DNA from: an uncultured virus (IMG/VR IMGVR_UViG_3300038428_000220)
Taxonomy: Duplodnaviria; Heunggongvirae; Uroviricota; Caudoviricetes
Length of the DNA stretch: 20,000 nucleotides
Virus record (IMG/VR): IMGVR_UViG_3300038428_000220
Direction: 5' to 3' (one strand)
Shown here: piece after piece, positions 1-14,251 of the stretch
How the letters are laid out: each line of letters starts with the position of its first letter
Position numbering within the stretch: position 1 is the stretch's first letter
Program-made: the position numbers and the translations under genes
Notes under the pieces: generated by a model
What the model was told of the DNA's origin: nothing
Databases searched by the model: none
What the model saw: the letters and a program-made list of their open reading frames with translations, nothing else

Positions 1-512
1 ACGGTGGTGAAGCCCCGGATATCGTCAAGCCAACAGGTCGTGGTGCTGCCGGCGTTCAAGTCGGTGCGCACGCGGGAATTCCCGCCCAGGTAGGCGCTAA
101 ACAACTTGTAGCGGCAAATCCGCTCCATGGACTGGGCGGCCTGCACGCCGTTGTTGCGGCTGTTGGCAATCAGCTGGTCGGCAATGCCGGCCAGTTCCTG
201 CTGCATGTTGGTGTCGACGGTGTCGGCGTACGAGGCAATCGTGAAGCTGTACTGCTCGACCGAGAAGGTGGACGACGTCAGGCCGTTGTCCAGGCCAGTG
301 TTGCTGGCCGGCGTCATTGGCGTGGTAACCGGCGTTTTGCGGCCCTTGCGGGTCCGCGTCAGCGTTTCACCGATTCGCGACGGCACAGTCTCCTGCAGGG
401 CCGCGCGCCGATAAGCCAGGATCGAATCCAGGCCTTCCTCAAGTTCGCGCTCCAGGAACCCCTGCTGCAGAATCGCGGCAAGCGCGGCGGGAAAATTGAC
501 GTATGAGCCCAT
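1..512 (-). CDS. Major capsid protein, N-terminal part (truncated by window edge)
   Basis: Manually translated from ATG at 512: MGSYVNFPAALAAILQQGFLERELEEGLDSILAYRRAALQETVPSRIGETLTRTRKGRK...GLDNGLTSSTFSVEQYSFTI...; open to base 1. GGGGGA SD upstream. Follows the scaffold gene. Resembles alphaproteobacterial prophage capsids starting 'NFPAALQPIIQQGFLERE' (from memory). Confidence 0.8.
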   Translation of the reverse strand, partial: MGSYVNFPAALAAILQQGFLERELEEGLDSILAYRRAALQETVPSRIGETLTRTRKGRKTPVTTPMTPASNTGLDNGLTSSTFSVEQYSFTIASYADTVDTNMQQELAGIADQLIANSRNNGVQAAQSMERICRYKLFSAYLGGNSRVRTDLNAGSTTTCWLDDIRGFTT

Positions 513-735
513 GTGGGTCCCCCAAAGCGTGATTGATCGTTCCGGAAGGGACAGCGGCTGTTACCAGCGCGTCATGGGTGCCAGCACCCAGTCCCGACGA
601 TCATTCACGGCACCCAGGGGGGCGGGCGCGTGGGGGACAACGGCGATCTATCGCACGACCAACGTCACAAGGTCGGCCAGTCTCGGCCGGGACCCCAGGT
701 TGCGCGCCTAGCCTGCTAGGCCGCGCGAGTCACGA
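513..735 (-). promoter_or_regulatory. Structured 5' leader of the capsid gene (putative cis-regulatory RNA)
   Basis: Nested stems 517-524/631-638, 528-532/605-609, 534-540/597-603, 548-552/591-595; hairpins at 557-568 (GUAA loop on the mRNA), 575-590, 643-654, 656-675 and 702-726. The outer stem covers the SD. Confidence 0.55.
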
Positions 736-742
736 CACGCAA

Positions 743-772
743 TCTATAGAGCCGATTTAATTCGATTGTCAA
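743..772 (-). promoter_or_regulatory. Sigma70-type promoter for the capsid gene
   Basis: TTGACA (772-767), 17-nt spacer, CTATAG (749-744), in an AT-rich patch just downstream of a terminator. Confidence 0.6.
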
Positions 773-778
773 ATTGTG

Positions 779-818
779 GAAAAGAAAACGGCCACGTCGG
801 GTGTGAACCGGTGGCCGC
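779..818 (-). terminator. Rho-independent terminator after the scaffold gene
   Basis: Minus strand CGGCCAC...GTGGCCG stem followed by TTTTCTTTT. Confidence 0.6.
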
Positions 819-963
819 TTCCTTGACGCTCGCCCTTTGCCCATGTGGGGCCCGACTCGTGCCGGGGACGATACCAGACCTGGCCTGCCGTTTCCATGGC
901 CGCGACCAGAAGCCACCGAAATGGCCGCGTTGTCCGTTGTCGTCGCGGGTGGCTGACACCCGG

Positions 964-1620
964 CTATTGGTTGCCCAGACTGCGCAGCGCGTCCTTTTTT
1001 TGCTGCTCGTATGCGCGCTTGCCCTCGGGCGTCTTTGGGATATCGCGCACGCTTGTCGTCGGCGGCGCGGCCCCAGGCGCTGGTGGCGGCAGCGGCGACC
1101 CGGTACTGGCGCGCACCGGCGCTGCAGCTGGCGCTGCGGCCGGCTTGAACCAATCGGGCTTCTTAGTCTTGCCCGCCGCAATCGCCTCGCTAATGCCGGT
1201 GAACGTGCCGGTGGCCGGGTCGTACGACACGGCCTTTTTATCAATCAGCGGCAGCAGGTCGAGGTCGGTCAGCCCGGCCTGTATGGCCGCGGCCTTAAGC
1301 TCGGCGTCGATCAGCTGCCTGCGCGTCGCCTGCAGTTCGGTGTTGCCGGCCTCGCGCGCGGTACGCTCGCGATTATCCGCCTCGGTCTTGAGTCGCGTGA
1401 TTTCCGCGTTAGCCGCGTCGACCTGTTCCTTGGCGGTACGCGCCTCGACGCGATTTGCCGCAGCCTCGGCGCGTGTGTTCGCAACGGTGTTTTCCAGCAC
1501 GGCAATGCGGTCCTGATCGGTCTGACCAGCTTGCCGCGGGGGTATCGGCGGCGCGACCGGCGGCACAACTGCTGCAGGCGGGGGTGGGGGCGGCGGCGGT
1601 GCATTATGGACGTCAGACAT
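964..1620 (-). CDS. Capsid scaffolding protein
   Basis: Coiled-coil core followed by 'IDAELKAAAIQAGLTDLDLLPLID...KPDWF'; Pro-rich termini; GAGAGG SD; immediately upstream of the capsid gene. Confidence 0.75.
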   Translation of the reverse strand: MSDVHNAPPPPPPPPAAVVPPVAPPIPPRQAGQTDQDRIAVLENTVANTRAEAAANRVEARTAKEQVDAANAEITRLKTEADNRERTAREAGNTELQATRRQLIDAELKAAAIQAGLTDLDLLPLIDKKAVSYDPATGTFTGISEAIAAGKTKKPDWFKPAAAPAAAPVRASTGSPLPPPAPGAAPPTTSVRDIPKTPEGKRAYEQQKKDALRSLGNQ

Positions 1621-1646: not shown

Positions 1647-1730
1647 TCATAGATACCGTTTACGCAAAAACCAAGCCAAAATCACCATGCTCGGCGCGCA
1701 GTATATCACGAATGCGTGCCAGATCGTCAT
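1647..1730 (-). CDS. Small hydrophobic peptide (27 aa, single TM plus basic tail)
   Basis: MTIWHAFVIYCAPSMVILAWFLRKRYL; ATGA overlap with the upstream stop at 1727-1730. Confidence 0.45.
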   Translation of the reverse strand: MTIWHAFVIYCAPSMVILAWFLRKRYL

Positions 1731-3034
1731 GCCGCCTTGTCCAGATAGGCCGGGGTGTTGTCGTTCGATGCCGGGTCCAGGTCGCGGTTGAGCAGGTAGG
1801 GGAAATATCCCCACGCGAAGCCGTTGTCTTCGAACGCGATGTACCCGTAGCCATAAATGGCCATGTTGCCTTCGCAGTCCATGATCGGGTCGACGCTGTT
1901 GCGCGGCACCGCCGGCCCAACCATCGTCCAGGTCACGCCCTGGTCGGTGGACCGCCACATTCCATAGCCGGTTAAATCCGTTATGCCTCCACCCCACGAC
2001 ACAACATAAACTGAGGGATAGCTTTGCCCGGACGCGGGCGCACCGAAGCCGACGCACATCGGTTCTTTAATCAATGAACTTGAAATCGTCGCGAAGGTCG
2101 CGCCGCCGTCGGTAGAGTGGAACAGCGAACTTGCCCCCGGATGCACCACCGTGCCGCCCCCAACGAGCCCTCCGGCGATCCATATGTCGTTCGCATTGCT
2201 AGGAGTCGCCTTCAATCTGATTATGTTGAACCCGAAGGCGTGATTGCCCATGAACGTGACGGTGCCGCCGCCGCCCGTCAGCTTGTAAATTCCGCTGCGG
2301 GAACTTGAGGGACTGGTTGCCGAATTGGTAGTGGCGAGGGCGATGTAGAACGTCCCCGCGGTCACGCGGTCCGCTGCGGTGGTGTAGTAGGGCCTATACG
2401 GCTGGATCAGATCGTTGTTGGAGTTCGCGTAGAGCGACACGAACAGGCTGTCCGCGCTTCCGCTGCTGGCCGACGTCGCGGCCGCCAGCAAAGTCACGGT
2501 GCCGGCGGCGCACGAAGACACCACGCCGATAGTCTTGGGCGGGGAATAGGTGTAGTCGAAAATCTCGGCAGTGGGATAAATGCCGGCGCACGAGCCCCCG
2601 CTGATGGTCAGCGTCGTGTCGTGCAGGGCCCACGACGCGCCCGCCGTGACGGACACCGGATCGGCGACGCCGTTGAACAATAAATTGTCGCCGCTCGTAA
2701 CGGTCGCCAGCGAGTTCGCGTTGAGCGTCAGCGTGGTGCTCGCGCAGCTCACTATCTGTCCGATGTTGACGGCGCCGCCGCCCTGAATGTCCCACGCCGT
2801 TTCGCCGGCGACCGCCTTTGAGCAAGACCCGACCGTGAGCGTCGCGCTGCCGCTTGCCGAGGTGGCGCTCGCGGTCGTGGTCGCCGCCAGGCCCGACGTT
2901 GGGGTGGCGGCGGCGAGCGAAACGTGCGTCCACCCCGACCCGCCGGCCCCTACCCCGCCGTTCATGGTATAGAACGGAGCCGACAGGGCGTAGGTCAGAA
3001 GAATGTTCAGCGGCGTGCTGACGGCGAGGGCCAT
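1727..3034 (-). CDS. BNR/Asp-box beta-propeller protein, GH74 xyloglucanase-like C-terminal part (probably 5'-truncated; plausible frame extends to ~3064)
   Basis: Asp-boxes HSTDGGATF and RSTDQGVTW; GFGAPASGQSYPSVY is typical of the GH74 C-terminal propeller. The part of the 599-aa ORF above ~3064 reads as non-coding shadow. No clear SD at 3034. Confidence 0.65.
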   Translation of the reverse strand: MALAVSTPLNILLTYALSAPFYTMNGGVGAGGSGWTHVSLAAATPTSGLAATTTASATSASGSATLTVGSCSKAVAGETAWDIQGGGAVNIGQIVSCASTTLTLNANSLATVTSGDNLLFNGVADPVSVTAGASWALHDTTLTISGGSCAGIYPTAEIFDYTYSPPKTIGVVSSCAAGTVTLLAAATSASSGSADSLFVSLYANSNNDLIQPYRPYYTTAADRVTAGTFYIALATTNSATSPSSSRSGIYKLTGGGGTVTFMGNHAFGFNIIRLKATPSNANDIWIAGGLVGGGTVVHPGASSLFHSTDGGATFATISSSLIKEPMCVGFGAPASGQSYPSVYVVSWGGGITDLTGYGMWRSTDQGVTWTMVGPAVPRNSVDPIMDCEGNMAIYGYGYIAFEDNGFAWGYFPYLLNRDLDPASNDNTPAYLDKAA

Positions 3035-3531
3035 GCCGTATTGAACTTGGTTCGTGAAGTCGACGAGCCGGTCGCGATGCAATGCAGCGTCGTAACGCCG
3101 GTCGGAATCGTGAAAGCAAACCAGCCGCCGCCGGCCGTTATCTCCTGGTCGCTGGTCGTGGCGGCCACGCCATTGACGTTGCAATACATCGGGTTGGCGC
3201 CGACGTTCGACACTACCGTGACCGGGCCAGTCGGCAGCGTGCCGCTGCTGTCGGAGGTCGTGACCGACAGCGGCGTCATGCGCGCGCCGGTCACGCTGGG
3301 CGTAAAGCCGCCAAGGCTTGCCGACAGCGTACCAAACACTGGTATGCCGCCGCCGGCGCATGACGACGTGCCGTCGCTGTTGACGACCGGCACAGCCTTG
3401 CCGGTCGAGTTCAAGCAGTACAGCGACACGCGCGCGGCGGTGCCGTCGTATTTTTGCTGCGCCTGGGCGGGCGCCACGAGGAAAAGCGCGGCGATCGCCG
3501 CACTGACAATGGCAGCCTGTAAGCATTTCAT
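3007..3531 (-). CDS. Signal-peptide-bearing Gly/Ser/Thr-rich beta protein (likely N-terminal part of a broken gene)
   Basis: MKCLQAAIVSAAIAALFLVAPAQA is a Sec-type signal with an AxA site. Sequence quality collapses after IATGSST at ~3060. Confidence 0.6.
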   Translation of the reverse strand: MKCLQAAIVSAAIAALFLVAPAQAQQKYDGTAARVSLYCLNSTGKAVPVVNSDGTSSCAGGGIPVFGTLSASLGGFTPSVTGARMTPLSVTTSDSSGTLPTGPVTVVSNVGANPMYCNVNGVAATTSDQEITAGGGWFAFTIPTGVTTLHCIATGSSTSRTKFNTAWPSPSARR

Positions 3532-3532
3532 T

Positions 3533-4234
3533 TTATGCGGCTCCATTATAGATGGCCGACACGACGGCACCGCCGCCGGTCAGCGTCTTAAGGCGCGCCT
3601 TGATGTACGCCGTAGTAATGCTGACCTGCGTCAGCCCCAGCTCGGTTATGGGCGCCAGCAGCACGCCGTCGGTGCCGGCCGCAATGGTGACCGACTCATT
3701 CGCGCCGCTATTCAGCACTCCGGTCAGCAGCGTCGTATTGGCATTGGGCGGGCTGCTGGGCGTGCCGGGGAATACCGCCGAGGGAAACTGAATCGTTATG
3801 GCGCCCGCCAGATTGGTCGCCGTGATCTGCACGGCCTGCATGCCGGCATCGGCGTTGATTTTGGTCACCAATGCGGCGGCGATGCTGGTGAGACTGTCGC
3901 CGCTGACCACGGTGTGCGTCAGAGTCTTGCTGCCATTCGGCAAATTGGGATTGATAAAATCCAGGCCGACCAGATCGCCCGGTGTCGCCGTGCCGCCGAT
4001 CGTCGCCGTGTAGGTATTAAGCGGCCAGCCCAGCGCGTTGGTGCCGAAAACGTCTATCTCGAGCGTCGAGATTGAACCAAACGCCTCGATTGAGCCGGTC
4101 TTGGCCCAGCCGGACGGAATCCACAGGCCCTCGACCGGCGTTGCCGCGACTGCGTCCAGCAATCGTGCCCTGATGCCGAAAGGACCGCCGAACGGCGCGG
4201 ACTGGTATTCACTGACCGGCTGCGTGCGCAACAT
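3533..4234 (-). CDS. Hypothetical phage structural protein
   Basis: 233 aa, beta-rich; contains 'TATIGGTATPGD...VVSGDSLTSIAAALVTKINA', a module seen in sheath/virion proteins; GGGGA SD. Confidence 0.7.
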   Translation of the reverse strand: MLRTQPVSEYQSAPFGGPFGIRARLLDAVAATPVEGLWIPSGWAKTGSIEAFGSISTLEIDVFGTNALGWPLNTYTATIGGTATPGDLVGLDFINPNLPNGSKTLTHTVVSGDSLTSIAAALVTKINADAGMQAVQITATNLAGAITIQFPSAVFPGTPSSPPNANTTLLTGVLNSGANESVTIAAGTDGVLLAPITELGLTQVSITTAYIKARLKTLTGGGAVVSAIYNGAA

Positions 4235-4253
4235 GGCGTCCCCCAGTTTCGGA

Positions 4254-4478
4254 TTACGATTCGCTCTCTATCACGGCCACGATCTCGTCCTGCGCGACCA
4301 CTTGGCCCAGCTCAATCCTGTGCCGCACCACGCCCGCGCAGGGTGCCACGATGGGCCACAGCGTTTTCATGCACTCGACCTCGACAATCCGATCGCCGGC
4401 CTCAACGCTGGCACCGTCGTCGGCGCAGCGGAGCGCGACGGTCCCGGCAATTTCGGCCCGGCAGTCTGTGGTGCGCAT
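4254..4478 (-). CDS. Stand-alone biotinyl/lipoyl attachment domain protein
   Basis: 74 aa with 'RAEIAGTV...GASVEAGDRIVEVECMKTLWPIVAPCAGVV...GQVV'; E-x-M-K biotinylation motif. Confidence 0.75.
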   Translation of the reverse strand: MRTTDCRAEIAGTVALRCADDGASVEAGDRIVEVECMKTLWPIVAPCAGVVRHRIELGQVVAQDEIVAVIESES

Positions 4479-4548
4479 TCGGCGGGGGACTCGGCTGGCA
4501 GCATGGACTGGTCAGGCCTCGACGGTGATTCGTCGTCTTGGACGCACG

Positions 4549-4872
4549 CTATACCATTTCCTGCGTTTGCTCGCGCCAATTAATCGTCAGGTTGGGCGCC
4601 GCGTCGCGCGCGTCGACCACGGCAATCAGCGCCCCGATGGCGCCGCCGCCCAACCAGAAGCTGCCCGTGAACATGCTGGGCTGCAAAAACAGCAGACGGC
4701 CCAGCGCGTCCTCAAGCTGCACGCGCCCCCAGGCGCCGGCCGCGACAATCTGCACGCTGTAGAGCTCGGCGTGCCGGCGCGCCAGGCGGAAGCGCCCGGC
4801 CGCGGTTATCTTGTGGCTGCGCATGAGGCTGCCCGGGGCCGACGGCGCGTACACGTCGACAAGGTCAAGCAT
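4549..4872 (-). CDS. Hypothetical protein (paralog of 7821-8282)
   Basis: 107-aa beta-rich ORF in the operon direction; shares motifs with 7821-8282. Confidence 0.65.
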   Translation of the reverse strand: MLDLVDVYAPSAPGSLMRSHKITAAGRFRLARRHAELYSVQIVAAGAWGRVQLEDALGRLLFLQPSMFTGSFWLGGGAIGALIAVVDARDAAPNLTINWREQTQEMV

Positions 4873-4901
4873 AGCGTTCTGGGGTTATGTACTTGACTCC
4901 C

Positions 4902-5198
4902 TCACGCCTTTTCCTTGGCGACCAACGACGCCGACACGCTGACGCCGGCCGATATGATGGCGCACCCCGGCGAGCCAAGATTGCCGCTCCAACCAACCGA
5001 GCCGCTGACCGACACATAGAAGTCCTGTTTGTCATTTGGCTCTGGAATAATGTTGACGAAAGCCATCACGGCAGTTCGCGCCTGCATGCGGTCGGCGGCA
5101 TGAATCGGCTGCGACGCCTCCACCTTGTCTAGCTCGGCGTCGACTTTTTTCATCACCTCGCGTTCGGTCGTCCCGCGTACACTGAATGAGTAGGACAT
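4902..5198 (-). CDS. Hypothetical phage protein
   Basis: MSYSFSVRG...; strong AGGAG SD; natural composition. Confidence 0.75.
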   Translation of the reverse strand: MSYSFSVRGTTEREVMKKVDAELDKVEASQPIHAADRMQARTAVMAFVNIIPEPNDKQDFYVSVSGSVGWSGNLGSPGCAIISAGVSVSASLVAKEKA

Positions 5199-5255
5199 TG
5201 ATGTCTCCTGGTGCAGATTTGCCGCAACCGGATGATTGCGGGGCCACCTATTTAA

Positions 5256-5492
5256 TCAGGTGTCGCACGGCTTGTCGATAAACGCTGGCGGTAACTTACG
5301 ACGCCGCGGTCGGAGAGGCCGGCCAAACACTGGCGCAATGCTGCGGTCGTGGCGTTCCATCCTATCCTCGTAGCTTTCCGCACGCACGATCGGCAGCAAA
5401 ATCACCATCGCGGGCTGCTCGCGGCGCACCGCCGGCGCGTAGGACGGCGCCCAGTCTGCAAACTGCACGACGTTACGGGCGCGCTTGCTCAT
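5256..5492 (-). CDS. Hypothetical protein
   Basis: MSKRARNVVQF...; its ATG is the TCAT target next to the IS left end. Confidence 0.6.
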   Translation of the reverse strand: MSKRARNVVQFADWAPSYAPAVRREQPAMVILLPIVRAESYEDRMERHDRSIAPVFGRPLRPRRRKLPPAFIDKPCDT

Positions 5493-5519
5493 CGTGACCT
5501 CGGGCGGAAACCCCGCCGT

Positions 5520-5951
5520 TCACGGCGGGGAGGAAGCCCGTTGAGCTTCCACGTATCGCTTGACCCTCTCAAGCGGAGCGCCACCAGCACTGGCGGCAAA
5601 GTAGGACGGCGACCAAAGAACACCGCGCCAATAACGAGCAGCGATATCCCGACGCTCAAGTCTGAGCAGTCGCGACGATGTTCCCTTGAGGGCGTTAACC
5701 AAGGCGGAAACGGAGTGCTTCGGCGGGTACTCAATAAGCAAGTGAACGTGATCTTTTTCGCCGTCACAGGCGATAAGCACACAATCCATTGCGGCGCAGA
5801 CCTTGCCAAAATGGCCTTTGAGCCAATTGATCGCTGGATCGTCAAGGAGCTTTCGACGATACTTTGTAACAAATACAAGGTGACAGACCAACTTAGTGAC
5901 GGAATGTCTACCCCTACGATATTCTGTCTTGTCCACTTGAAATCCCTCCAC
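5520..5951 (-). CDS. tnpA: IS200/IS605 Y1 HUH transposase
   Basis: HLVFVTKYRR, HUH motif DHVHLL, LWSPSYF, catalytic Tyr in YVEAQ. Confidence 0.95.
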   Translation of the reverse strand: MEGFQVDKTEYRRGRHSVTKLVCHLVFVTKYRRKLLDDPAINWLKGHFGKVCAAMDCVLIACDGEKDHVHLLIEYPPKHSVSALVNALKGTSSRLLRLERRDIAARYWRGVLWSPSYFAASAGGAPLERVKRYVEAQRASSPP

Positions 5952-5971
5952 AGACCAAGTAGATAGTCTGC

Positions 5972-7048
5972 ATGATTTTGACTTTCAAGTACAGGATCAA
6001 GGACGCGACAGTCGGGAAGTATCTCGACAGGCACTCGCGTTCGGTCAATTTTGTTTGGAACTACTGTTGCGAAACCCAGCGTAAGGTTGAAGCCTATTAC
6101 AAGGCAGGCGCACCTAAGCGCCGTTGGCCTTCGCATTTCGATCTCGTCAAGCTGACCACGGGTTGCGCAGCGGAACTTGGCCTGCACTCCGATACGGTCG
6201 GACAAATCTGCAAGCAGTTTGTAATCTCGCGCAACGCGGCCCGACATGCTCCGCGTTTCCGCGCCAGCAGGGGCCCCAAGCGAGCCCTCGGCTGGCTGCC
6301 CTTTATCAAGCGCACCGTGAAACTCGACGGCGCGCACGTTGTCTACCTCAAACGTAAATTCCATTTCTGGAAGTCGCGGGATATCCCCGACGCCATCAAG
6401 ACGGGCTGCTTTACTCAAGACGCCCGTGGTCGCTGGTATGTTTGTTTCCAGTGCGAGGTTGCCGACGATCTGCCAACTGGCAACGGCGAAGTCGGGATTG
6501 ATCTTGGATTGAAGACCCTCGCCACATGCAGCAACGGCGACACTATCTCCGCCTTGCGGCATTATCGCAAATATGAGGCTACGCTCGCCATTGCACAGCG
6601 CGCCGGACATAAGCAGCGCGTCAGGGCTATCCACGCCAAGATAGCGAACGTGCGCAAGGACCAACTTCACAAGGCCAGCAGCAAGATTGCTGCGGAAAAC
6701 CAACTTATCGTTGTCGGCAATGTCAGCGCCGCACAGCTTGCCAAAACGCGAATGGCTAAGTCCGTTCTCGATGCAAGCTGGTCGATGCTGCGGAACATGC
6801 TCGAATATAAAGCCAGCAGGCACCGGGCGCGTTACGTTGAAGCCGATGAGCGTTGGACTTCCCAAGTGTGTTCGTGCTGCGGGACAATTCCCGACAGCAG
6901 TCCGAAAGGTATGGGCGCACTTGGAATAAGACATTGGGTATGCTCAGACTGTGGTTGCTCGCATGATCGCGACGCGAACGCTGCTCGGAACATTCTCCGT
7001 GTCGGGGCGGAACGTCGCCCACCTGTAGAGGAAATCCCCGCCCTTTAG
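5972..7048 (+). CDS. tnpB: RNA-guided endonuclease TnpB
   Basis: RuvC-I GIDLGLK; Zn finger CSCCG...CSDCG; RuvC-III DRDANAARNI; ends in the RE hairpin. Confidence 0.95.
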   Translation: MILTFKYRIKDATVGKYLDRHSRSVNFVWNYCCETQRKVEAYYKAGAPKRRWPSHFDLVKLTTGCAAELGLHSDTVGQICKQFVISRNAARHAPRFRASRGPKRALGWLPFIKRTVKLDGAHVVYLKRKFHFWKSRDIPDAIKTGCFTQDARGRWYVCFQCEVADDLPTGNGEVGIDLGLKTLATCSNGDTISALRHYRKYEATLAIAQRAGHKQRVRAIHAKIANVRKDQLHKASSKIAAENQLIVVGNVSAAQLAKTRMAKSVLDASWSMLRNMLEYKASRHRARYVEADERWTSQVCSCCGTIPDSSPKGMGALGIRHWVCSDCGCSHDRDANAARNILRVGAERRPPVEEIPAL

Positions 7049-7061
7049 GGCGGGGAAGACG

Positions 7062-7280
7062 TTAAGCTGCCCTCGTGTATTCCCACCTAAAGTTGCCGCC
7101 CGGCAGTGGGTGCTTGCTGCGCTTGACGCGGCCAACGGCCGCTAGGTGACGCAGCATGGTGTCGACGCTCTCCGGTGACCAGCAGCCCACGCGCTCCCAT
7201 ATCTCGCGCGCGCCGCGCGGGTGGCTGTCCACCACCGACATAATCTGGTCGAGCGTCGCTGGGCTGAATCCACCAGTCAT
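7062..7280 (-). CDS. Small winged-helix-like protein
   Basis: 'AREIWERVG...SVDTMLRHLAAVGRVKR' wHTH pattern; ATGA-coupled start; stop supplied by the IS right end. Confidence 0.6.
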   Translation of the reverse strand: MTGGFSPATLDQIMSVVDSHPRGAREIWERVGCWSPESVDTMLRHLAAVGRVKRSKHPLPGGNFRWEYTRAA

Positions 7281-7504
7281 GGTCTAATAATTCCCCCCAA
7301 CAGTCTGGCGTCCAGCCGCTTGGCGCTGACCGGCACACCGATTCGCGTCTCGATCAGATTGGCCAGCCGGCACGGTATGCCGTCGGCCCAGCCCAGATAG
7401 TTTATCAGCGGCACGCCCAGCTCGTGCGCGGCCTCGGCCGGCGTGTAGCGATTGCGCTTTTGCCAGGCCTGCAGCTGCAGGGCGATGTTGCGGGGTGCTG
7501 CCAT
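7277..7504 (-). CDS. XRE-like HTH protein
   Basis: 'LQAWQKRNRYTPAEAAHELGVPLINYLGW' HTH pattern. Confidence 0.65.
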   Translation of the reverse strand: MAAPRNIALQLQAWQKRNRYTPAEAAHELGVPLINYLGWADGIPCRLANLIETRIGVPVSAKRLDARLLGGIIRP

Positions 7505-7507
7505 TGG

Positions 7508-7696
7508 TCAGCCCGTCAGCTTGTCCAGCAGAATCTTGTGCGCCAGCTGCGCGGCGCGGAATCCGCTTTCAAATCTCGTGATTGCAACATTGGTGTCGGC
7601 TTCCGTGACGATGCCGCTGCAGAGGACGCCAAACAGCAGCGACACATGCGCGTTGAATGCGTCGTCCAGCGCTTTGGTGATCTGCTCTTTGGTCAT
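7508..7696 (-). CDS. Hypothetical protein (62 aa)
   Basis: MTKEQITKALDDAFNAHV...; GGGAG SD before ATG 7696. Confidence 0.6.
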   Translation of the reverse strand: MTKEQITKALDDAFNAHVSLLFGVLCSGIVTEADTNVAITRFESGFRAAQLAHKILLDKLTG

Positions 7697-7824
7697 GCGT
7701 AAAATCTCCCCCACACCGGTTTGCTGCGCAGCGGCCAGCGTAGCCACGGGATTCGCGCCGACGACAGCACACAGCCGAGCATCAGCGCGCGGCGGTGGCG
7801 GCGCAAGGTCGGCTCCAGCGTCAT
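7693..7824 (-). CDS. Small basic hypothetical peptide (43 aa)
   Basis: MTLEPTLRRHRRALMLGCVLSSARIPWLRWPLRSKPVWGRFYA; ATGA overlaps at both ends exactly fill the gap. Confidence 0.4.
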   Translation of the reverse strand: MTLEPTLRRHRRALMLGCVLSSARIPWLRWPLRSKPVWGRFYA

Positions 7825-8282
7825 GCGTCACCAGCTGGGTCGGGTGCGCGCTGCCGGACTGGCATCCAGACTATGCTGGCAACGGTCGACACGCTGGCGT
7901 GCCCGCTCGTTGCCCTGATTGTTAGACCATGCAGGAATCCACCGTCCATCATGAACGACCCCATAATAGCTGCTGGGGCCTGGTAGATCGCCCGACCATT
8001 GCGTGTATCGTAAGCAATGCGTCGTTGCTTATGTTCGTCGATCTGCGCCTGCGTCGAGCCAGGCCGCAGGGGCGCAGGTTCTTCCATATTGTCGCCGGGG
8101 AAGTGGCCGCCCACGTCAGGGATTCCATCAAAGGCTTCAAGCGCACCGGCGCCAGCGTGTGTGCATGCGATGGTGCGCAAAATGCCGGGTCCTTCCTCAA
8201 GGATAAAAGTGCCCTTGCGGTCGAGAAGCCATATTTTGCCGCCCAGCGGCGGCAGATCGACGCGGATTCTAACTGGCTTCAT
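7821..8282 (-). CDS. Hypothetical protein (paralog of 4549-4872)
   Basis: Starts MKPVRIRVDL at the ATGA overlap with the portal stop. Confidence 0.7.
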   Translation of the reverse strand: MKPVRIRVDLPPLGGKIWLLDRKGTFILEEGPGILRTIACTHAGAGALEAFDGIPDVGGHFPGDNMEEPAPLRPGSTQAQIDEHKQRRIAYDTRNGRAIYQAPAAIMGSFMMDGGFLHGLTIRATSGHASVSTVASIVWMPVRQRAPDPAGDA

Positions 8283-9994
8283 GCGTTCACCGTCGTGCGC
8301 GGCCCTATGTTCATGCCGCCTACCTGCGCGGGACCGGCCGCCGGGCTGGCCGACTCGGGCTGGTCGGCCGGCGTGCCGGGCTCCACCGGCACGTCGACTG
8401 ACGTCGGCTGCGGCGCCATTGGCGTGGCCTCGTCGGGCTCCGTCGGGCTGTCGTCGACCGCGTCCTGTTCTTCGCCGGCGTCCTCCATGTCGATCATGGA
8501 CAAATCCAGCACCTGCGCGATGTAGGCCTTGGCTTCCTCGAACGTAATAAGCTGTTCTTCCGGCTTTGGCTCGGTCGCCGGCACGGCGTCGACATGCGCG
8601 CCCTGCGCGCTGGCCGGCCTGCTGCCTGGTTGCGCTGGCGCGGTCTTTTTCATCGGATCCAACATGATTTGGAACGCTTGGGCGAGCGAGAACACCTCGT
8701 CGGGCGTCGGCTGGAACATGCGCGGCCACTGCAGCGTGAAGCCGCCGGCGTCCTTGTCGATCTTGGACGCAATCGCTATCTTTTTGATCAGCGGCAGCGC
8801 ACCATGCTCGCCGTACTGGCTGCGCAGGTCGCCCACCATGTCGTCGCTGTCCTGGTCGAGGTACTCCATGGCGCGCCCAGACAGCGGGGCTTTCATTTTG
8901 TCGGGGTCTTTACGGCTGGCCGCGATCTGCTCGAGCGCCATGTTGCGCAGGTGGTCGATCAGCTTGAGCGCCGCCTCGGTGCCGGTGCCGGACATTTCCA
9001 GCAGCTTGGCGTCGCCGACGCCGACCATGCTGCCGTCCTCGTCCTTGTAACCGGCTTCCATTTCCAGGTGCGTCATGGGCCCGCGCGTCACGGCGCCGTT
9101 CATCACCTTGCCGATCGTCACCAACTGCGGCGCGCTGTTGTAGCGCGTGCCGCGACCGATTTGGCTCAACGTGTAGTCGAGCTCGACGCTGTTGGGGATT
9201 GCGTCTTCGAACGTGCAGCAGCCGTCGGGCGCCAGGCCGCCGCCCAGATTGACAAACCAATGCGCGCACACAAAGCCCAGGTCGTGCTTGTATTCCTCGC
9301 CGGCCCACGGCTCTAACTTTTTGTTGGCCGCGCCCTCGCCGACAAAGCCGTGCACGGGATTCCATTCGACCTTCTTGACCGGCTGATACGTCACCTCGCC
9401 GGTCGGCAGCCAGTCGCGGATATACCAATACTCTTGGCCCTTCTCGACGCCAGGCGCCCCCATGGCTTCAAGCGCTGCCCCGCTGGTCGTGTAGGCAACG
9501 CGCAGCTGCGCCAGCTCCCCCATGTCGTCAAAGCTGGGTTGGCAGTATTTGGCGCGCCAGCATTGCAACGCCACCTTGGGGTTTTTGCCGCCTGTGGTTT
9601 CGACGCGAAACGTGACGGCCACGGCGCCGACGCTGCCCAGCAGCACGGCTTCTGCCATGCGTTCAAAAAACTTGCCCTTGCGCAGCAGCGCCGCCATGGA
9701 CGCAATCTTGGCCTTGTCCTTGTGGCGCACCTTGGGCGCGTGCCGGCCGGTGAACAGCTTGCGGGTGCACCAGCGCGCGACCATGCGCGGCAGCCGGTAC
9801 TGCGCCGACGGTCGGCGCTCGGTCAGCGGTATCAGCTCCTGCGTGCCTGGCTTGACCTCGTCGTAAAACGCATAGTTCAAATGATTGTAAAAGGTGCCGT
9901 CGAGCAGGCGGTCGCGCAGGTCAAGGCAGCGATAGCGCGAGTCCTCGCTGGCCCAGTCGGGGTATCGGATCGCCTGCGCGATTTTGCGGAACAT
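8279..9994 (-). CDS. Portal protein (SPP1 gp6-like) with acidic/Pro-rich C-terminal tail
   Basis: 571 aa downstream of terL; 'ELDYTLSQIGRGTRYNSAPQLV', 'LSGRAMEYL', 'LQWP' pattern of SPP1-type portals. Confidence 0.8.
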   Translation of the reverse strand: MFRKIAQAIRYPDWASEDSRYRCLDLRDRLLDGTFYNHLNYAFYDEVKPGTQELIPLTERRPSAQYRLPRMVARWCTRKLFTGRHAPKVRHKDKAKIASMAALLRKGKFFERMAEAVLLGSVGAVAVTFRVETTGGKNPKVALQCWRAKYCQPSFDDMGELAQLRVAYTTSGAALEAMGAPGVEKGQEYWYIRDWLPTGEVTYQPVKKVEWNPVHGFVGEGAANKKLEPWAGEEYKHDLGFVCAHWFVNLGGGLAPDGCCTFEDAIPNSVELDYTLSQIGRGTRYNSAPQLVTIGKVMNGAVTRGPMTHLEMEAGYKDEDGSMVGVGDAKLLEMSGTGTEAALKLIDHLRNMALEQIAASRKDPDKMKAPLSGRAMEYLDQDSDDMVGDLRSQYGEHGALPLIKKIAIASKIDKDAGGFTLQWPRMFQPTPDEVFSLAQAFQIMLDPMKKTAPAQPGSRPASAQGAHVDAVPATEPKPEEQLITFEEAKAYIAQVLDLSMIDMEDAGEEQDAVDDSPTEPDEATPMAPQPTSVDVPVEPGTPADQPESASPAAGPAQVGGMNIGPRTTVNA

Positions 9995-11217: not shown

Positions 11218-13827
11218 TCACCTTGCGAAGATCGGCAGCACCTGGGCGCCGCCGGACTGCGGCTGCGTGCGCTTTTTCTTCTGCAGCCTGGCGTAGCCGC
11301 CCGTCATGGCGTCGGTCTGGTCCTTGAACTTGCTGCCGGGGAAGTTTGTCACTTCCTCCAAAAACGTGTCGTTCCACGGCCCGACGACAATCTCGACGTT
11401 ACCATTTTCGGCCTGCGCCGCCATGGGCTCCGCGCGGTCGATCTTGCTGCCCGTCTCAATCAGCTTATGCGCGTCAAAGCCGTCCAGCATGCTGACCATG
11501 TCTCGCGCCACCGTATTGTGCACGACGATATCGCGCACTAGAAACGACGCCTGTCCGCGTACCGTCAGGCAGCGGCACGGTCGGACGCCAGCCGGCGTCA
11601 CGGACATGACCTGATCCGGCAAATAGTCCTCGTCGAAACGGCGATAGATCGACGCGTTGGCCAGCGACGCCAGTCGGGCGGCCTTGAACGAGTGGTGCAC
11701 CGGAATTCGCTTCAAAAACCGGCCATAGGCGTCGTCCTGCTGGCGCATGCGCAACAGCCAGCTACGGTGGCGTTTCTCCAGATATTTGCCATTCTTGGTC
11801 TTTAGCGTCGAATTGATGCCAAGCCGCAGCAGCAGGTGCTGCACATCCTCAAGCAACGCCTTGCTGACGCTGTAGAATATGACCTCGTGCGCGTCTTTCG
11901 ATACGAATCCGTCACAGGCGAAATAGGCCCCAAGGAATTCAGCCACCAACGGGCTGGGGGCGCCAAACACCCATGCTGGCACACGTTTGGTATAGGCATT
12001 GTGCCCGGCCAGTCCGGTATCACGCAGCCATGACTGCAAGCCCGCTGCGTTGATCTCGCCGCGCCGGTAACCATTGCTGGTGCGGCCACCAACGGATTGC
12101 ACGCAATGCCGGAAGTCCAGCAGCTCAACATGGTCGTGACAACAGAACGACGATTTGCTGCTTTGCACCTTGCGTTCCGGTCGTCGGATGCTTGTCACCG
12201 ATCCATCGCCAATAAAATAGCCAGCAAGCCGGAACTCTTCCGCCGAACGATCAGCGATCGCCGCTATGCGCGGAGTACTGCGGAGCGCGACAACGCTGCC
12301 TGGGCGCAGGGCGCCGGCAGCCACCCAATCGTCTGGCGTGAGAAACGGGTGGTCAAGCGCCGCCACGACTTCGCGCCCGGATCCTGTCTTAATGCACACC
12401 GTCGGCAAGTCGCCCTGTTGAAACACAGCGTCGACCATCCCAGGCACACCATCCTTGCCTATGACGGTGTCACCAACAATGATTTCCTTAAGCGGCACCT
12501 GTTGGCCATCGCCGCGCAAGATCAATTCTTCCTCCCAGATTGGCTTGCCGGCGCTGCCAGGGTCTTGCGGCACCTGCACCTCGTAGCTACCGCCCAGCTG
12601 GGCAATGCGTATCTGGTCGGCCAGCGCCGTCGCCTTGACCAGCCGGCGCACCAGGGGCGCCTGCTCGCGACAGCGCTGCACGTCGGCAATGCAGTATTGC
12701 GACAATGTCGGGTGCTTGCCCAGCAGCACGCCGGCGGTGTAGGGCGGGTCGGCCGTATAAGTCGCCTCGGTGTCCGCCAGGTCCCAGTGCCGCACCCAGC
12801 GATAGCCCAGCGGCATGGCTGGCCTGGGCTTGAACCAGGCGCGCTTGAACATGCCGCCTTCGCGCGGCACCGGAGTCTGTTGGTGTTGCCCAGAAACTGC
12901 GTATGCGGTCATCTCGCGTTCAAGTGCATCCACGGTAGCTAACGGGAATCGTTCAGGAAATAGCAATTCCCCCTCTTGCCGGCGCGGGTCAGTGAATATC
13001 GGCGTCGTGCAGTGCCGGCCTTGCTCGTACCGCATGGGCAGCACCAGGGCTATGTGCTGCACCCCGATTTGCTCCCACACCCCGCTGGGGTCATCCTGAT
13101 GCACCCGCTGCATAATCAGCGCGATGGCCGACGCCACCGGGTCATTAAGACGAGTTGGCACCGATTCCCGCATGATGAACTTAGCCTGCTCGCGATCGGC
13201 GTCCGACTTGGACTGCGGCACCGACAGCGGGTCGTCGATCGTCAGCACGTCGCCGCGGCCGCCGGTCAGCCCCTCGAACGCCACGCCCTCGCGTGTGCCC
13301 TTGCTCGAATTCTCAAACGACGTTTCGGCCACGCGTGTCAGCTTCACATGCGGCCAAAGCGTCTGATACCAGTCCGAAAGGATCAAATCGCGGGTCTTGC
13401 GCGTGTCGCGCTTGACGTAATCCGCCGAATAGCTGGTCGACAGGAAACGCCGGTGTGCCAGATTGCACGGTCCCCATTGCCAGGCGTTCCATAAAACACT
13501 GACAATCAATGATTTCCCGACGCCTGGCGGCACATTGAAGCGCACCTTGTTCGGCAGCCCCATGGCCAGGAAACGACCCCAGGTCAGAGCCTCAAGGTGA
13601 TCGCATATCGCACGCACCACCCAGCCCTCGACAAACTGCGTCCTGGGCTCAAGGACGTGCCAGGCCTCGCGCACAAAGCCGATTAAGGTCTGGCAGCGCG
13701 CGCGGATAGCATCCGCGTTCGCCTGCGTGTCTGCCCGCTCGCGCTCAGTGGCTCGTTGGTGCTTTGCCTGCTGGATCGCCTGCAGCAGTTGGGTCGGCGA
13801 GATTCGCGACAACACTGAGAGCGCCAA
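11218..13827 (-). CDS. terL: Terminase large subunit, intein-containing (start uncertain; ORF open to 13893)
   Basis: Walker A VPPGVGKS; GGRGDVLTIDDP (Walker B); IMQRVHQDD; nuclease motifs WDLA and FPGSKFKDQTDA. Confidence 0.92.
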   Translation of the reverse strand: MALSVLSRISPTQLLQAIQQAKHQRATERERADTQANADAIRARCQTLIGFVREAWHVLEPRTQFVEGWVVRAICDHLEALTWGRFLAMGLPNKVRFNVPPGVGKSLIVSVLWNAWQWGPCNLAHRRFLSTSYSADYVKRDTRKTRDLILSDWYQTLWPHVKLTRVAETSFENSSKGTREGVAFEGLTGGRGDVLTIDDPLSVPQSKSDADREQAKFIMRESVPTRLNDPVASAIALIMQRVHQDDPSGVWEQIGVQHIALVLPMRYEQGRHCTTPIFTDPRRQEGELLFPERFPLATVDALEREMTAYAVSGQHQQTPVPREGGMFKRAWFKPRPAMPLGYRWVRHWDLADTEATYTADPPYTAGVLLGKHPTLSQYCIADVQRCREQAPLVRRLVKATALADQIRIAQLGGSYEVQVPQDPGSAGKPIWEEELILRGDGQQVPLKEIIVGDTVIGKDGVPGMVDAVFQQGDLPTVCIKTGSGREVVAALDHPFLTPDDWVAAGALRPGSVVALRSTPRIAAIADRSAEEFRLAGYFIGDGSVTSIRRPERKVQSSKSSFCCHDHVELLDFRHCVQSVGGRTSNGYRRGEINAAGLQSWLRDTGLAGHNAYTKRVPAWVFGAPSPLVAEFLGAYFACDGFVSKDAHEVIFYSVSKALLEDVQHLLLRLGINSTLKTKNGKYLEKRHRSWLLRMRQQDDAYGRFLKRIPVHHSFKAARLASLANASIYRRFDEDYLPDQVMSVTPAGVRPCRCLTVRGQASFLVRDIVVHNTVARDMVSMLDGFDAHKLIETGSKIDRAEPMAAQAENGNVEIVVGPWNDTFLEEVTNFPGSKFKDQTDAMTGGYARLQKKKRTQPQSGGAQVLPIFAR
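11515..12543 (-). mobile_element. Intein (343 aa) with LAGLIDADG homing endonuclease, in TerL
   Basis: AGK|PIWEEELILRGDG...; block B ALDHPF; LAGYFIGDGS and FLGAYFACDG; block F CRCLTV; ends VVHN|T. Confidence 0.9.
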
Positions 13828-14251
13828 GGACTCGCTCGAATTGCTCAATATCGCCCTCCGGTAGTTTGCCCAAGATGGCCGCCAGTGCCGCAATGTCCAG
13901 CGGACTACCGTCCGGATTGGTGTGCGCCACGCCGGTCAGCCGGCGGTGGCAATACATCGCGGCATCGCGCGCGGCCATGCGGGCATACGATAGCTCATTC
14001 CTGACCAATTCGCGGTCCAGCGGCCGACCGCCTTCCCTGCCCTCGTCAGCCTTGGCGCGCGCCTGCTCGCGTCCGGCTTCGTCCATGTGGTATCTGGCGA
14101 TCGACAGCAGCATGTCGGCCGGGCTGGCACCGGCATGCAACGTCTTTATTTCGGCCGCCACCGCGCTGGCGCTGCTCGCAACGCCTGGAATGGCCAATTT
14201 ATCGGCTTTTGGCTTCCGCCCGGCACCTGGTCGCCATCCACCTCGTGGCAT
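13745..14251 (-). CDS. terS: Terminase small subunit
   Basis: N-terminus MPRGGWRPGAGRKPK; 'AARDAAMYCHRRL...NPDGSP'; directly upstream of terL. Confidence 0.75.
   Translation of the reverse strand: MPRGGWRPGAGRKPKADKLAIPGVASSASAVAAEIKTLHAGASPADMLLSIARYHMDEAGREQARAKADEGREGGRPLDRELVRNELSYARMAARDAAMYCHRRLTGVAHTNPDGSPLDIAALAAILGKLPEGDIEQFERVLGALSVVANLADPTAAGDPAGKAPTSH

Follow-up and report, generated by a model that had tools for sequence, protein, structure and literature searches.

A covarying RNA core in the predicted 5' leader of the major capsid gene of an uncultured tailed phage

Results

The window analyzed here is a 20,000-nucleotide (nt) stretch of DNA from an uncultured tailed phage (Caudoviricetes; IMG/VR record IMGVR_UViG_3300038428_000220), and our subject is the region between its head scaffolding gene and its major capsid gene, above all positions 513-772 on the minus strand. 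All genes in this part of the window lie on that strand, and the features discussed below are collected in Table 1. The capsid open reading frame (ORF) matches the major head protein family phrog_1357 (E 4.7e-9), and the complete 466-aa ORF was found in contig L001. The gap between the scaffold and capsid genes measures 451 nt (963..513), and its capsid-proximal part, about 224 nt (~736..513), would form a leader that ends in GGGGGA-N5-AUG. Within this leader lies a small RNA core (685..643) that covaries across the window's own and four other lineages, while a fifth other lineage (L058) fits it by eye. The initial annotation of this stretch had proposed an undescribed cis-regulatory RNA that works by hiding the Shine-Dalgarno (SD) sequence of the capsid gene; a structure with compensatory changes and no Rfam family is indeed present, while the features of the SD switch fail in comparison with related leaders.

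Table 1. Features of the scaffold-capsid region of the window, listed from the scaffold gene to the capsid gene.
Feature	Position	Strand	Basis or remark
Head scaffolding protein gene	1620..964	-	PF06810, 47.4 bits; phrog_194
Atu_At1-like RNA (RF02496)	968..861	-	63.5 bits, gathering score 60; model positions 1-108, full length
Intrinsic-terminator-like hairpin and U-tract	824..780	-	dG -24.5, z -3.86, 0/200 shuffles; ends scaffold unit
Promoter-like site	772..743	-	TTGACA (772..767), N18, TATAGA (748..743); predicted start near 736
Own-lineage GC-rich hairpin/palindrome	724..702	-	Fold; near predicted transcript 5' end
Possible pseudoknot stem S1	685..682 with 671..668	-	CGAG with CUUG in hairpin A loop; H-type topology
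Hairpin A	678..657	-	GGCCGAC (678..672) / GUUGGUC (663..657), 8-nt loop CUUGUGAC; best-supported conserved helix
Hairpin B	654..643	-	GCGA-UAGA-UCGC (654..651 with 646..643); small, conserved
Anti-SD GUCCCCCA	638..631	-	Perfect complement of the SD-containing UGGGGGAC (524..517)
Second copy of UGGGUGCC, proposed alternative partner	616..609	-	Sequence; pairing probability ~0
Hairpin C	590..575	-	UGGGUGC-U-GGCACCCA; pair probabilities 0.81-0.999
Hairpin D, GNRA loop (GUAA 564..561)	573..550	-	Minimum free energy fold; loop-closing pairs probability 0.99
SD-like GGGGGA	523..518	-	Sequence; 5 nt before ATG
Major capsid gene, 5' part	512..3	-	ORF list; first 170 of 466 codons; ATG 512..510

The core comprises two hairpins and a possible pseudoknot stem, and the counts that follow were made on six sequences from five lineages. 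In hairpin A, six of the seven pairs have changed on both sides and 90.5% of cells are paired, against 32-44% in slid controls. Hairpin B takes the form GCGA/UCGC, GGGC/GCCC, CGGGC/GCCCG or GGUG/CACC depending on the lineage; two of its four pairs have changed on both sides, and 71-80% of its cells are paired, a figure reduced by 1-nt register shifts in L006/L040 and L146. S1 is paired in 24 of 24 cells and has, among its four pairs, one compensatory change (GC to CG, in L009) and one pair that varies between GU and GC, although two of its bases compete with helix 4 in the lineages that carry the full-length element described below. For the core as a whole, 87.8% of cells are paired compared with 32-44% in slid controls, 9 of 15 pairs have changed on both sides, and none of 500 shuffles reaches the covariation score. 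L058, which has CGCG/CGCG at the position of S1 by eye, was left uncounted because MAFFT misaligned it. The linker from the core to the capsid ATG measures 71-130 nt and is unrelated between most lineages.

The core is the 3' third of a larger element in the five other lineages. Six lineages in total carry the element, of which five were counted for the core and four (L006, L009, L010 and L146) for the full form. In these four it is about 170 nt long with seven helices, and in L006 and L146 its start follows the predicted -10 box by a few nucleotides. Here 93.4% of cells are paired (27-45% when slid), 16 of 34 pairs are compensatory, and again 0/500 shuffles reach the score. Of the seven helices, just 6 and 7 are present in the window. 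Two models were built in this analysis, one of the core (R1) and a covariance model of the full element (R2). R1 gives the window's own sequence 64.2 bits, but this was a training sequence; L146, which lay outside the training set, scores 19.7 bits at the expected place. R2 finds nothing in the window at E<=1, nor at E<=0.01 in G001, the matching IMG/VR viral record (34 kb, linear, ~49% complete). The sixth lineage, which appears as L039, L058 and L149 (capsid identity 64%; one copy in an Acetobacteraceae metagenome-assembled genome, MAG), matches R2 with 37.2 bits (E 4.7e-8), 61-229 nt upstream of the capsid ATG. In all six lineages the element lies directly upstream of the capsid gene.

By blastn, the sole homologue of the window's leader is that of the L006/L040 lineage (capsid identity 78-80%), over gap positions 277-404. 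The alignable stretch of 128 nt is ~67% identical and includes the common blocks GCCGAGACUGGC and CCUUGUGACG, the 14-mer GGGUGCUGGCACCC and the GNRA hairpin. The 14-mer (589..576), part of hairpin C, is identical in L006/L040, and since the five pairs of that hairpin are invariant they supply no covariation evidence. The GCAA-loop hairpin of L006 aligns to hairpin D, with two of eight pairs changed on both sides. Hairpins C and D are common to the own and L006 lineages only, between which 6 of 51 pairs are compensatory. The longer upstream element of L006 recurs in L009 and L010 (capsid identity 73%), and L146 (77%) was added by a second viral scan with capsid alignment.

Wider searches yielded no further convincing locus, either with R2 in 100 sources or with R1 in 56 + 73 sources. 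With R1, 11 matches of 24-31 bits in 3 genomes and 151 genomes of the G003 family were rejected, since their surroundings are coding-like DNA and contain neither a capsid nor a scaffold gene; R2 found nothing in a similar sample of 151 genomes, a search of lowered sensitivity in which the control G002 was recovered only when a smaller search scored more candidates. DNA-pattern searches of viral contigs returned only known contigs and L053, and of the 30 stretches from a further pattern search five were known and 25 were dropped for want of a common continuation or a capsid gene. L053 (IMG/VR 3300032246_002620) has at 2470-2571 (+) a partial match to the element's 5' hairpin region (AAGCCGACCAAACGGCGGAC and flanks), at 21.8 bits, with no capsid or scaffold gene nearby; it could be due to chance or represent a second context for the 5' hairpin module.

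The capsid and intergenic region of the window is identical in three viral contigs. Its other capsid relatives, in which the N-terminus MGS(F/Y)xNFP is kept, fall into three groups: metagenomic viral contigs (60-80% identity), prophage-like loci in Acetobacteraceae/Rhodospirillales MAGs (43-64%), and Ralstonia phages of the genus Rahariannevirus (~48% amino acid identity), where the gap between the upstream ORF and the capsid gene is only 93 nt. The scaffold-capsid gap among relatives ranges from 54 nt to >2 kb: 54-95 nt in many distant ones, 150-450 nt in others, and more than 600 nt with inserted ORFs in some. Even close relatives have unrelated sequences in this gap.

Between the scaffold gene and the leader lie two features which the initial annotation had taken to separate the capsid gene from the scaffold gene, a terminator and a promoter-like site, and counterparts of both recur in L006 and L146. 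The terminator has a bulged G+C hairpin followed by UUUUCUUUU, that is, the G+C-rich hairpin and U-tract of an intrinsic terminator. A simple scanner left it unflagged, probably owing to the bulge in the stem, and its region gives a weak Rfam match to a ctRNA terminator (16 bits, E 2). L006 has a strong terminator after its scaffold stop codon (dG -26.8, z -4.93), and in L146 the scanner found one after the scaffold gene. The region has a single AT-rich island (GC 0.33-0.40, compared with 0.6-0.78 nearby), in which the promoter-like site sits. Measured against sigma-70, its -35 box agrees at 6/6 positions and its -10 box at 4/6, with an 18-nt spacer. The boxes and spacing of L006/L040 are identical (TTGACA-N18-TATAGA), and L146 has TTGACA-N18-TAGGGA; a promoter pattern with up to two mismatches is itself not rare, occurring in 51 of 200 shuffles. 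The alphaproteobacterial promoter consensus is given in PMC3384568 as CTTGNN-N18-TATNNT and CTTGAC-N17-CTATAT. The order of scaffold gene, terminator, promoter-like boxes, leader and capsid gene is the same in the own lineage, L006 and L146, and from its sequence the capsid gene appears to be a transcription unit of its own in at least three lineages, with the element beginning at its predicted 5' end.

Upstream of the terminator, the window carries the Atu_At1-like RNA, which overlaps the end of the scaffold gene, stop codon included, by 5 nt and lies 42 nt upstream of the terminator. It is the sole match at gathering level to Rfam in the 20-kb window; the type copy of Atu_At1 on pAt of Agrobacterium fabrum C58 scores 115.3 bits. 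In PMC3384568, a validated At1 RNA of 113-115 nt is placed directly upstream of ligD on plasmid At of that strain. No Atu_At1 match was seen among the capsid relatives examined (13 + 20 loci), the region had no blastn match among plasmids, and a literature search under the name Atu_At1 found nothing. In the same slot of L146, at 640-705 (+) between the scaffold stop (610) and the promoter-like site (~859), a match of 34.2 bits to the alphaproteobacterial small RNA (sRNA) family suhB/mmgR falls below the gathering score of 41 and ends in a scanner-detected terminator (668-691). The scaffold-capsid gap may thus collect host-type sRNA modules.

The initial annotation had described a leader folded almost from end to end, with the SD paired to the anti-SD and with GGCACCCA (582..575) switching between two partners. 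All the strings it named are in place, including the perfect 8-nt complement of the SD segment and the GUAA hairpin. The end-to-end fold is that of the minimum free energy (MFE) structure, from which hairpin A is missing, and it is wrong in the 5' half, where it conflicts with the structure supported by comparison. The folding energy is only marginally better than that of shuffled sequences: the MFE of 505-745 (-) is -110.8 kcal/mol (z -1.58; 14/200 shuffles as good), and with the SD and start fixed and the upstream part shuffled (n=300) z is -1.91, with 3.3% as good. The pair probabilities of 638..631 with 524..517 are 0.78-0.998 in the predicted ensemble, and the SD is paired with a probability of 0.993 against a shuffle mean of 0.80 (3.3% of shuffles as high). 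Twelve of 300 shuffles contain a perfect complement of at least 8 nt to the -16..-1 region. These statistics are uncorrected for the multiple features that the initial annotation had inspected. Over 19 lineages, the structuredness of capsid leaders runs from z +0.56 to -4.40 with no consistent signal. The lower extreme belongs to L071, an Acetobacteraceae MAG, whose unrelated leader (~2294-2494; 201 nt, consisting of a 189-nt gap and 12 nt of the capsid gene) has z -4.40 with 0/100 shuffles as good and could represent another kind of structured leader at this site.

Comparison with homologous leaders, which supports the core, does not extend to the SD helix or to the alternative partner. As a conserved regulatory helix the SD:anti-SD pairing fails, since in all four related leaders (L006, L009, L010 and L146) neither SD pairing nor complement length exceeds that of shuffles, 47-98% of which equal the observed values; in L006, SD pairing is 0.83 against a shuffle mean of 0.89. 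The window's anti-SD falls in a gap of the alignment with L006, and the window's sequence breaks 5 of the 11 pairs of the L006 SD helix. The conserved or compensated pairing above background that would mark an SD-sequestering operator was therefore not seen, 3.3-4% of shuffles equaling the window's own helix. The G-rich SD recurs in relatives both with and without the element. GGCACCCA can indeed pair with UGGGUGC (590..584) or with UGGGUGCC (616..609), yet the latter is replaced by unrelated sequence in L006, and enforcing it gives -92.9 instead of -110.1 kcal/mol. A riboswitch would be expected to have two conserved, mutually exclusive pairings of comparable stability, and the 616..609 alternative does not provide this.

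The element does not appear to encode a protein. No sense-strand frame is open across the lineages, the element alignments contain single-base indels, and tblastx scores are alike on both strands; a hidden small gene was rejected because of the indels and the lack of a conserved sense frame. A four-codon upstream ORF (AUG 577..575) was discarded, being absent in L006. The scanner found no capsid-strand terminator separating the element from the ATG in the window's own sequence, and none was seen by eye in the other lineages. A scan of 400-1100 with Rfam 15 gave no match inside 513-772 at the gathering threshold or at E<=5, as the initial annotation had implied for an undescribed RNA, and the elements of the relatives had no relevant Rfam match.

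Three further identities were considered and set aside. A tRNA or tRNA-like origin of hairpin B was rejected, ARAGORN finding 0 genes in the window and 18 loci. The palindrome at 724..702, which has no counterpart among the relatives compared, occurs once in the window and was rejected as a repeated operator. An IS200/IS605 right end or TnpB omega-RNA remnant was likewise rejected, as a TnpB ORF adjoins the element in L010 only and in none of L006, L009, L146, L058 and the own lineage. The TnpB-like ORF of L010 (1597-2130 (+); OrfB_IS605 and Cas12f1-like TNB domains) lies 124 nt upstream of the element, where other lineages have the promoter. The window's phage has two sibling contigs, L212 and L213, in which a TnpB of 56% identity is inserted at another place; it is absent from the window.

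Discussion

Pairs of hairpin A and S1 have changed in compensation across lineages, the window's own included, which points to selection on pairing. On this comparative evidence the core, made up of hairpins and a possible pseudoknot, is a real RNA fold under selection within the predicted leader, which also contains a domain shared with one lineage. On balance, we lean towards reading 513-772 (-) as the promoter region and ~224-nt mosaic 5' untranslated region of a major-capsid unit, transcribed separately, in a tailed phage, with a cis-acting role in the fate of the capsid mRNA as its most likely function. The leader would be made up of four modules. The GC hairpin of the own lineage (724..702) would lie near the 5' end, followed by the core, in which hairpin A is probably closed to an H-type pseudoknot by pairing of CGAG with its loop and is succeeded by hairpin B. 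A putative three-way domain (~600..550) with hairpins C and D, common to the L006 lineage only, would come next, and the G-rich SD would end the leader. The core would most likely act in cis on the capsid mRNA, either by offering a recognition site to a trans-acting factor or by determining, through its fold, how stable the mRNA is or how much it is translated. The 8-bp SD:anti-SD helix of the own lineage would provide at most a static, lineage-specific damping of initiation.

A number of observations weigh against this interpretation. The window contains only about a third of the element and is without helices 1-5. This capsid family can also do without the element: of about 21 lineages whose capsids are at least 60% identical, about 15 lack it by our reading, and in many more distant relatives the scaffold-capsid gap of 54-95 nt is short. 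Thermodynamic support is slight (z -1.6 to -1.9 for the own leader, and -0.36, -1.09 and +0.87 for L009, L010 and L146, respectively), and the predicted ensemble of the own leader gives hairpin A a probability of 0.002, even though a fold in which hairpins A and B are enforced is just 3.2 kcal/mol above the own MFE. The sequences are few, and the structures were derived from the same alignments on which pairs were counted, so that the counts lean towards the structures. Finally, the -10 box is without the usually invariant final T (T6), for which reason the consensus scanner called 0 promoters, and not only the start site but also the transcribed strand is predicted from sequence.

It is possible, though rather unlikely in our estimation, that the core and the ~170-nt form constitute an undescribed class of phage leader RNA that gates major-capsid synthesis by binding a phage or host factor, with the window as a natural minimal version. 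Assembly-state feedback by free scaffold or capsid protein, comparable to T4 gp32 autoregulation, would be one example of such gating. Improbable on the present comparison is the ligand-, protein- or temperature-responsive riboregulator that had been proposed at the outset, in which the SD would be hidden in 638..631/524..517 and toggled through the partners of GGCACCCA. The perfect 8-bp complement with its high pair probability speaks for it, as only ~3-4% of shuffles exceed the SD pairing or the complement length, and L006 has a C-rich tract, GAUCCCU, that is paired with AGGGGUC in its MFE structure. However, a G-run SD is predicted to be paired in ~80-89% of shuffled leaders, the related leaders do no better than their shuffles, and the own anti-SD lies in a gap of the L006 alignment, while pairing with the unconserved 616..609 costs ~17 kcal/mol; moreover, no Rfam riboswitch or thermometer matched, and an 8-bp G/C helix is unlike the known RNA thermometers. 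A processive antitermination RNA of the kind of HK022 put or Bacillus EAR, which would allow polymerase to read through terminators of the capsid/tail operon, seems to us similarly improbable. The element is a compact, multi-hairpin, possibly pseudoknotted RNA at the start of a unit directly past a terminator, it begins close behind the predicted -10 box in L006 and L146, and its variable distance to the ATG with an unconserved linker would fit polymerase better than the ribosome as target; set against this, Rfam reported no similarity to put or EAR, and two thirds of the element are gone from the own lineage.

We consider it quite improbable that the promoter drives a separate or processed trans-acting small RNA, moron-like and only incidentally upstream of the capsid gene. 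Such an RNA would suit a gap that holds host-type sRNA-like modules (the Atu_At1-like RNA in the own lineage, the suhB/mmgR-like match with its terminator in L146), and the partial copy of the 5' hairpin region in the non-capsid context of L053 would suit it as well. The L053 match is weak and partial, with a 19-nt seed compatible with chance (~2 expected by our estimate), the element was found directly in front of the capsid gene in 6/6 lineages, and no terminator separates the element from the capsid ATG. There is likewise only a slim chance that the hairpins are recombination debris, a neutral mosaic in an insertion hot spot without present function in the window's phage. The gap is variable in length and holds inserted ORFs, the TnpB element of L010 and, among close relatives, unrelated sequences; the own lineage is without the 5' two thirds of the element, and the folding energy is marginal. 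The compensated pairs of hairpin A and S1 argue against neutrality, however, as does the 14-nt stretch of hairpin C that has stayed identical despite the ~67% identity of the alignable leader.

Several known systems resemble parts of this arrangement. The pseudoknot in the leader of T4 gene 32 mRNA is an autogenous translational operator, from which gp32 coats the A/U-rich single strand. The resemblance would lie in the possible H-type pseudoknot within a phage 5' leader, with an unconserved linker, tens of nucleotides long, between it and the ribosome site downstream; there is no sequence relation, however, the linker here is G+C-rich and structured, the gene downstream encodes the capsid, and a binding protein is hypothetical. 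In the com/mom translational activation of phage Mu and the alternative mRNA folds of lambda cIII, which are conserved and genetically proven switches, a hairpin encloses the SD or start and a factor changes the folding. The switch model of the initial annotation would operate in this manner, but in the window the SD helix belongs to a single lineage and the alternative fold cannot compete with it. T7 gene 10 is expressed at a very high level from the phi10 promoter, which the phage RNA polymerase recognizes, with a short leader. As there, the capsid gene of the window would have its own promoter past the scaffold gene and a dedicated leader, although the boxes are host sigma-70-like and the leader, at ~224 nt, is highly structured. 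HK022 put and Bacillus EAR are compact, cis-acting stem-loop or pseudoknot RNAs just past a promoter; the element shares this predicted form and position with them and has no homology to them.

To our knowledge, structured leaders of phage structural genes have been predicted in bulk, and almost none has a known mechanism. Mining of IMG/VR for csRNAs produced 8,495 models, and in the report of that work (PMC10690425) five candidates are typically upstream of the major capsid domain PHA00201, the Rfam motifs GP20-a/GP20-b are named among phage structural-gene RNAs, and the T4 gene 32 leader pseudoknot is mentioned. The element resembles these csRNAs as a covarying intergenic RNA directly upstream of a phage head gene in metagenomic viral contigs. 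It differs from the "cis" class of that source, defined as lying within 25 nt of the start codon, in that the core lies 71-130 nt upstream. Six motif strings of the element did not occur in the readable supplements of PMC10690425, whose csRNA alignments were not part of that comparison. We place the element, which has no Rfam match, among the structured leader motifs of phage head genes rather than among the riboswitches or thermometers.

Six capsid leaders that have one compensated core in common, differ in their 5' and 3' surroundings and include one natural truncation (the window) amount to a small natural experiment. If the core binds a factor or alters mRNA fate, it would show how capsid output is made independent of the scaffold gene, whose unit is closed by a terminator of its own. 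The SD helix carries a more general caution, in that in G+C-rich DNA a convincing-looking SD-sequestering fold is close to background, a G-run SD being paired with a probability of ~0.80-0.89 in shuffled leaders.

Additional observations

Elsewhere in the window, on the minus strand, the 891-aa ORF at 11218-13893 has a terminase RNaseH-like C-terminal domain and is interrupted by LAGLIDADG_3 homing-endonuclease and intein splicing domains, and by its domain content looks like an intein-containing large terminase. Between a portal-like gene (8279-9994) and the scaffold gene lie ~6.6 kb of ORFs (1727-8729), most without a family match and including ORFs of 599 aa (1727-3526) and 481 aa (5489-6934), an insertion that is unusually large for a portal-scaffold-capsid module. 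Among the head-module genes, a 74-aa ORF at 4254-4478 has a Biotin_lipoyl domain (34.8 bits), and a similar small ORF with an ECMK motif occurs in contig L012.

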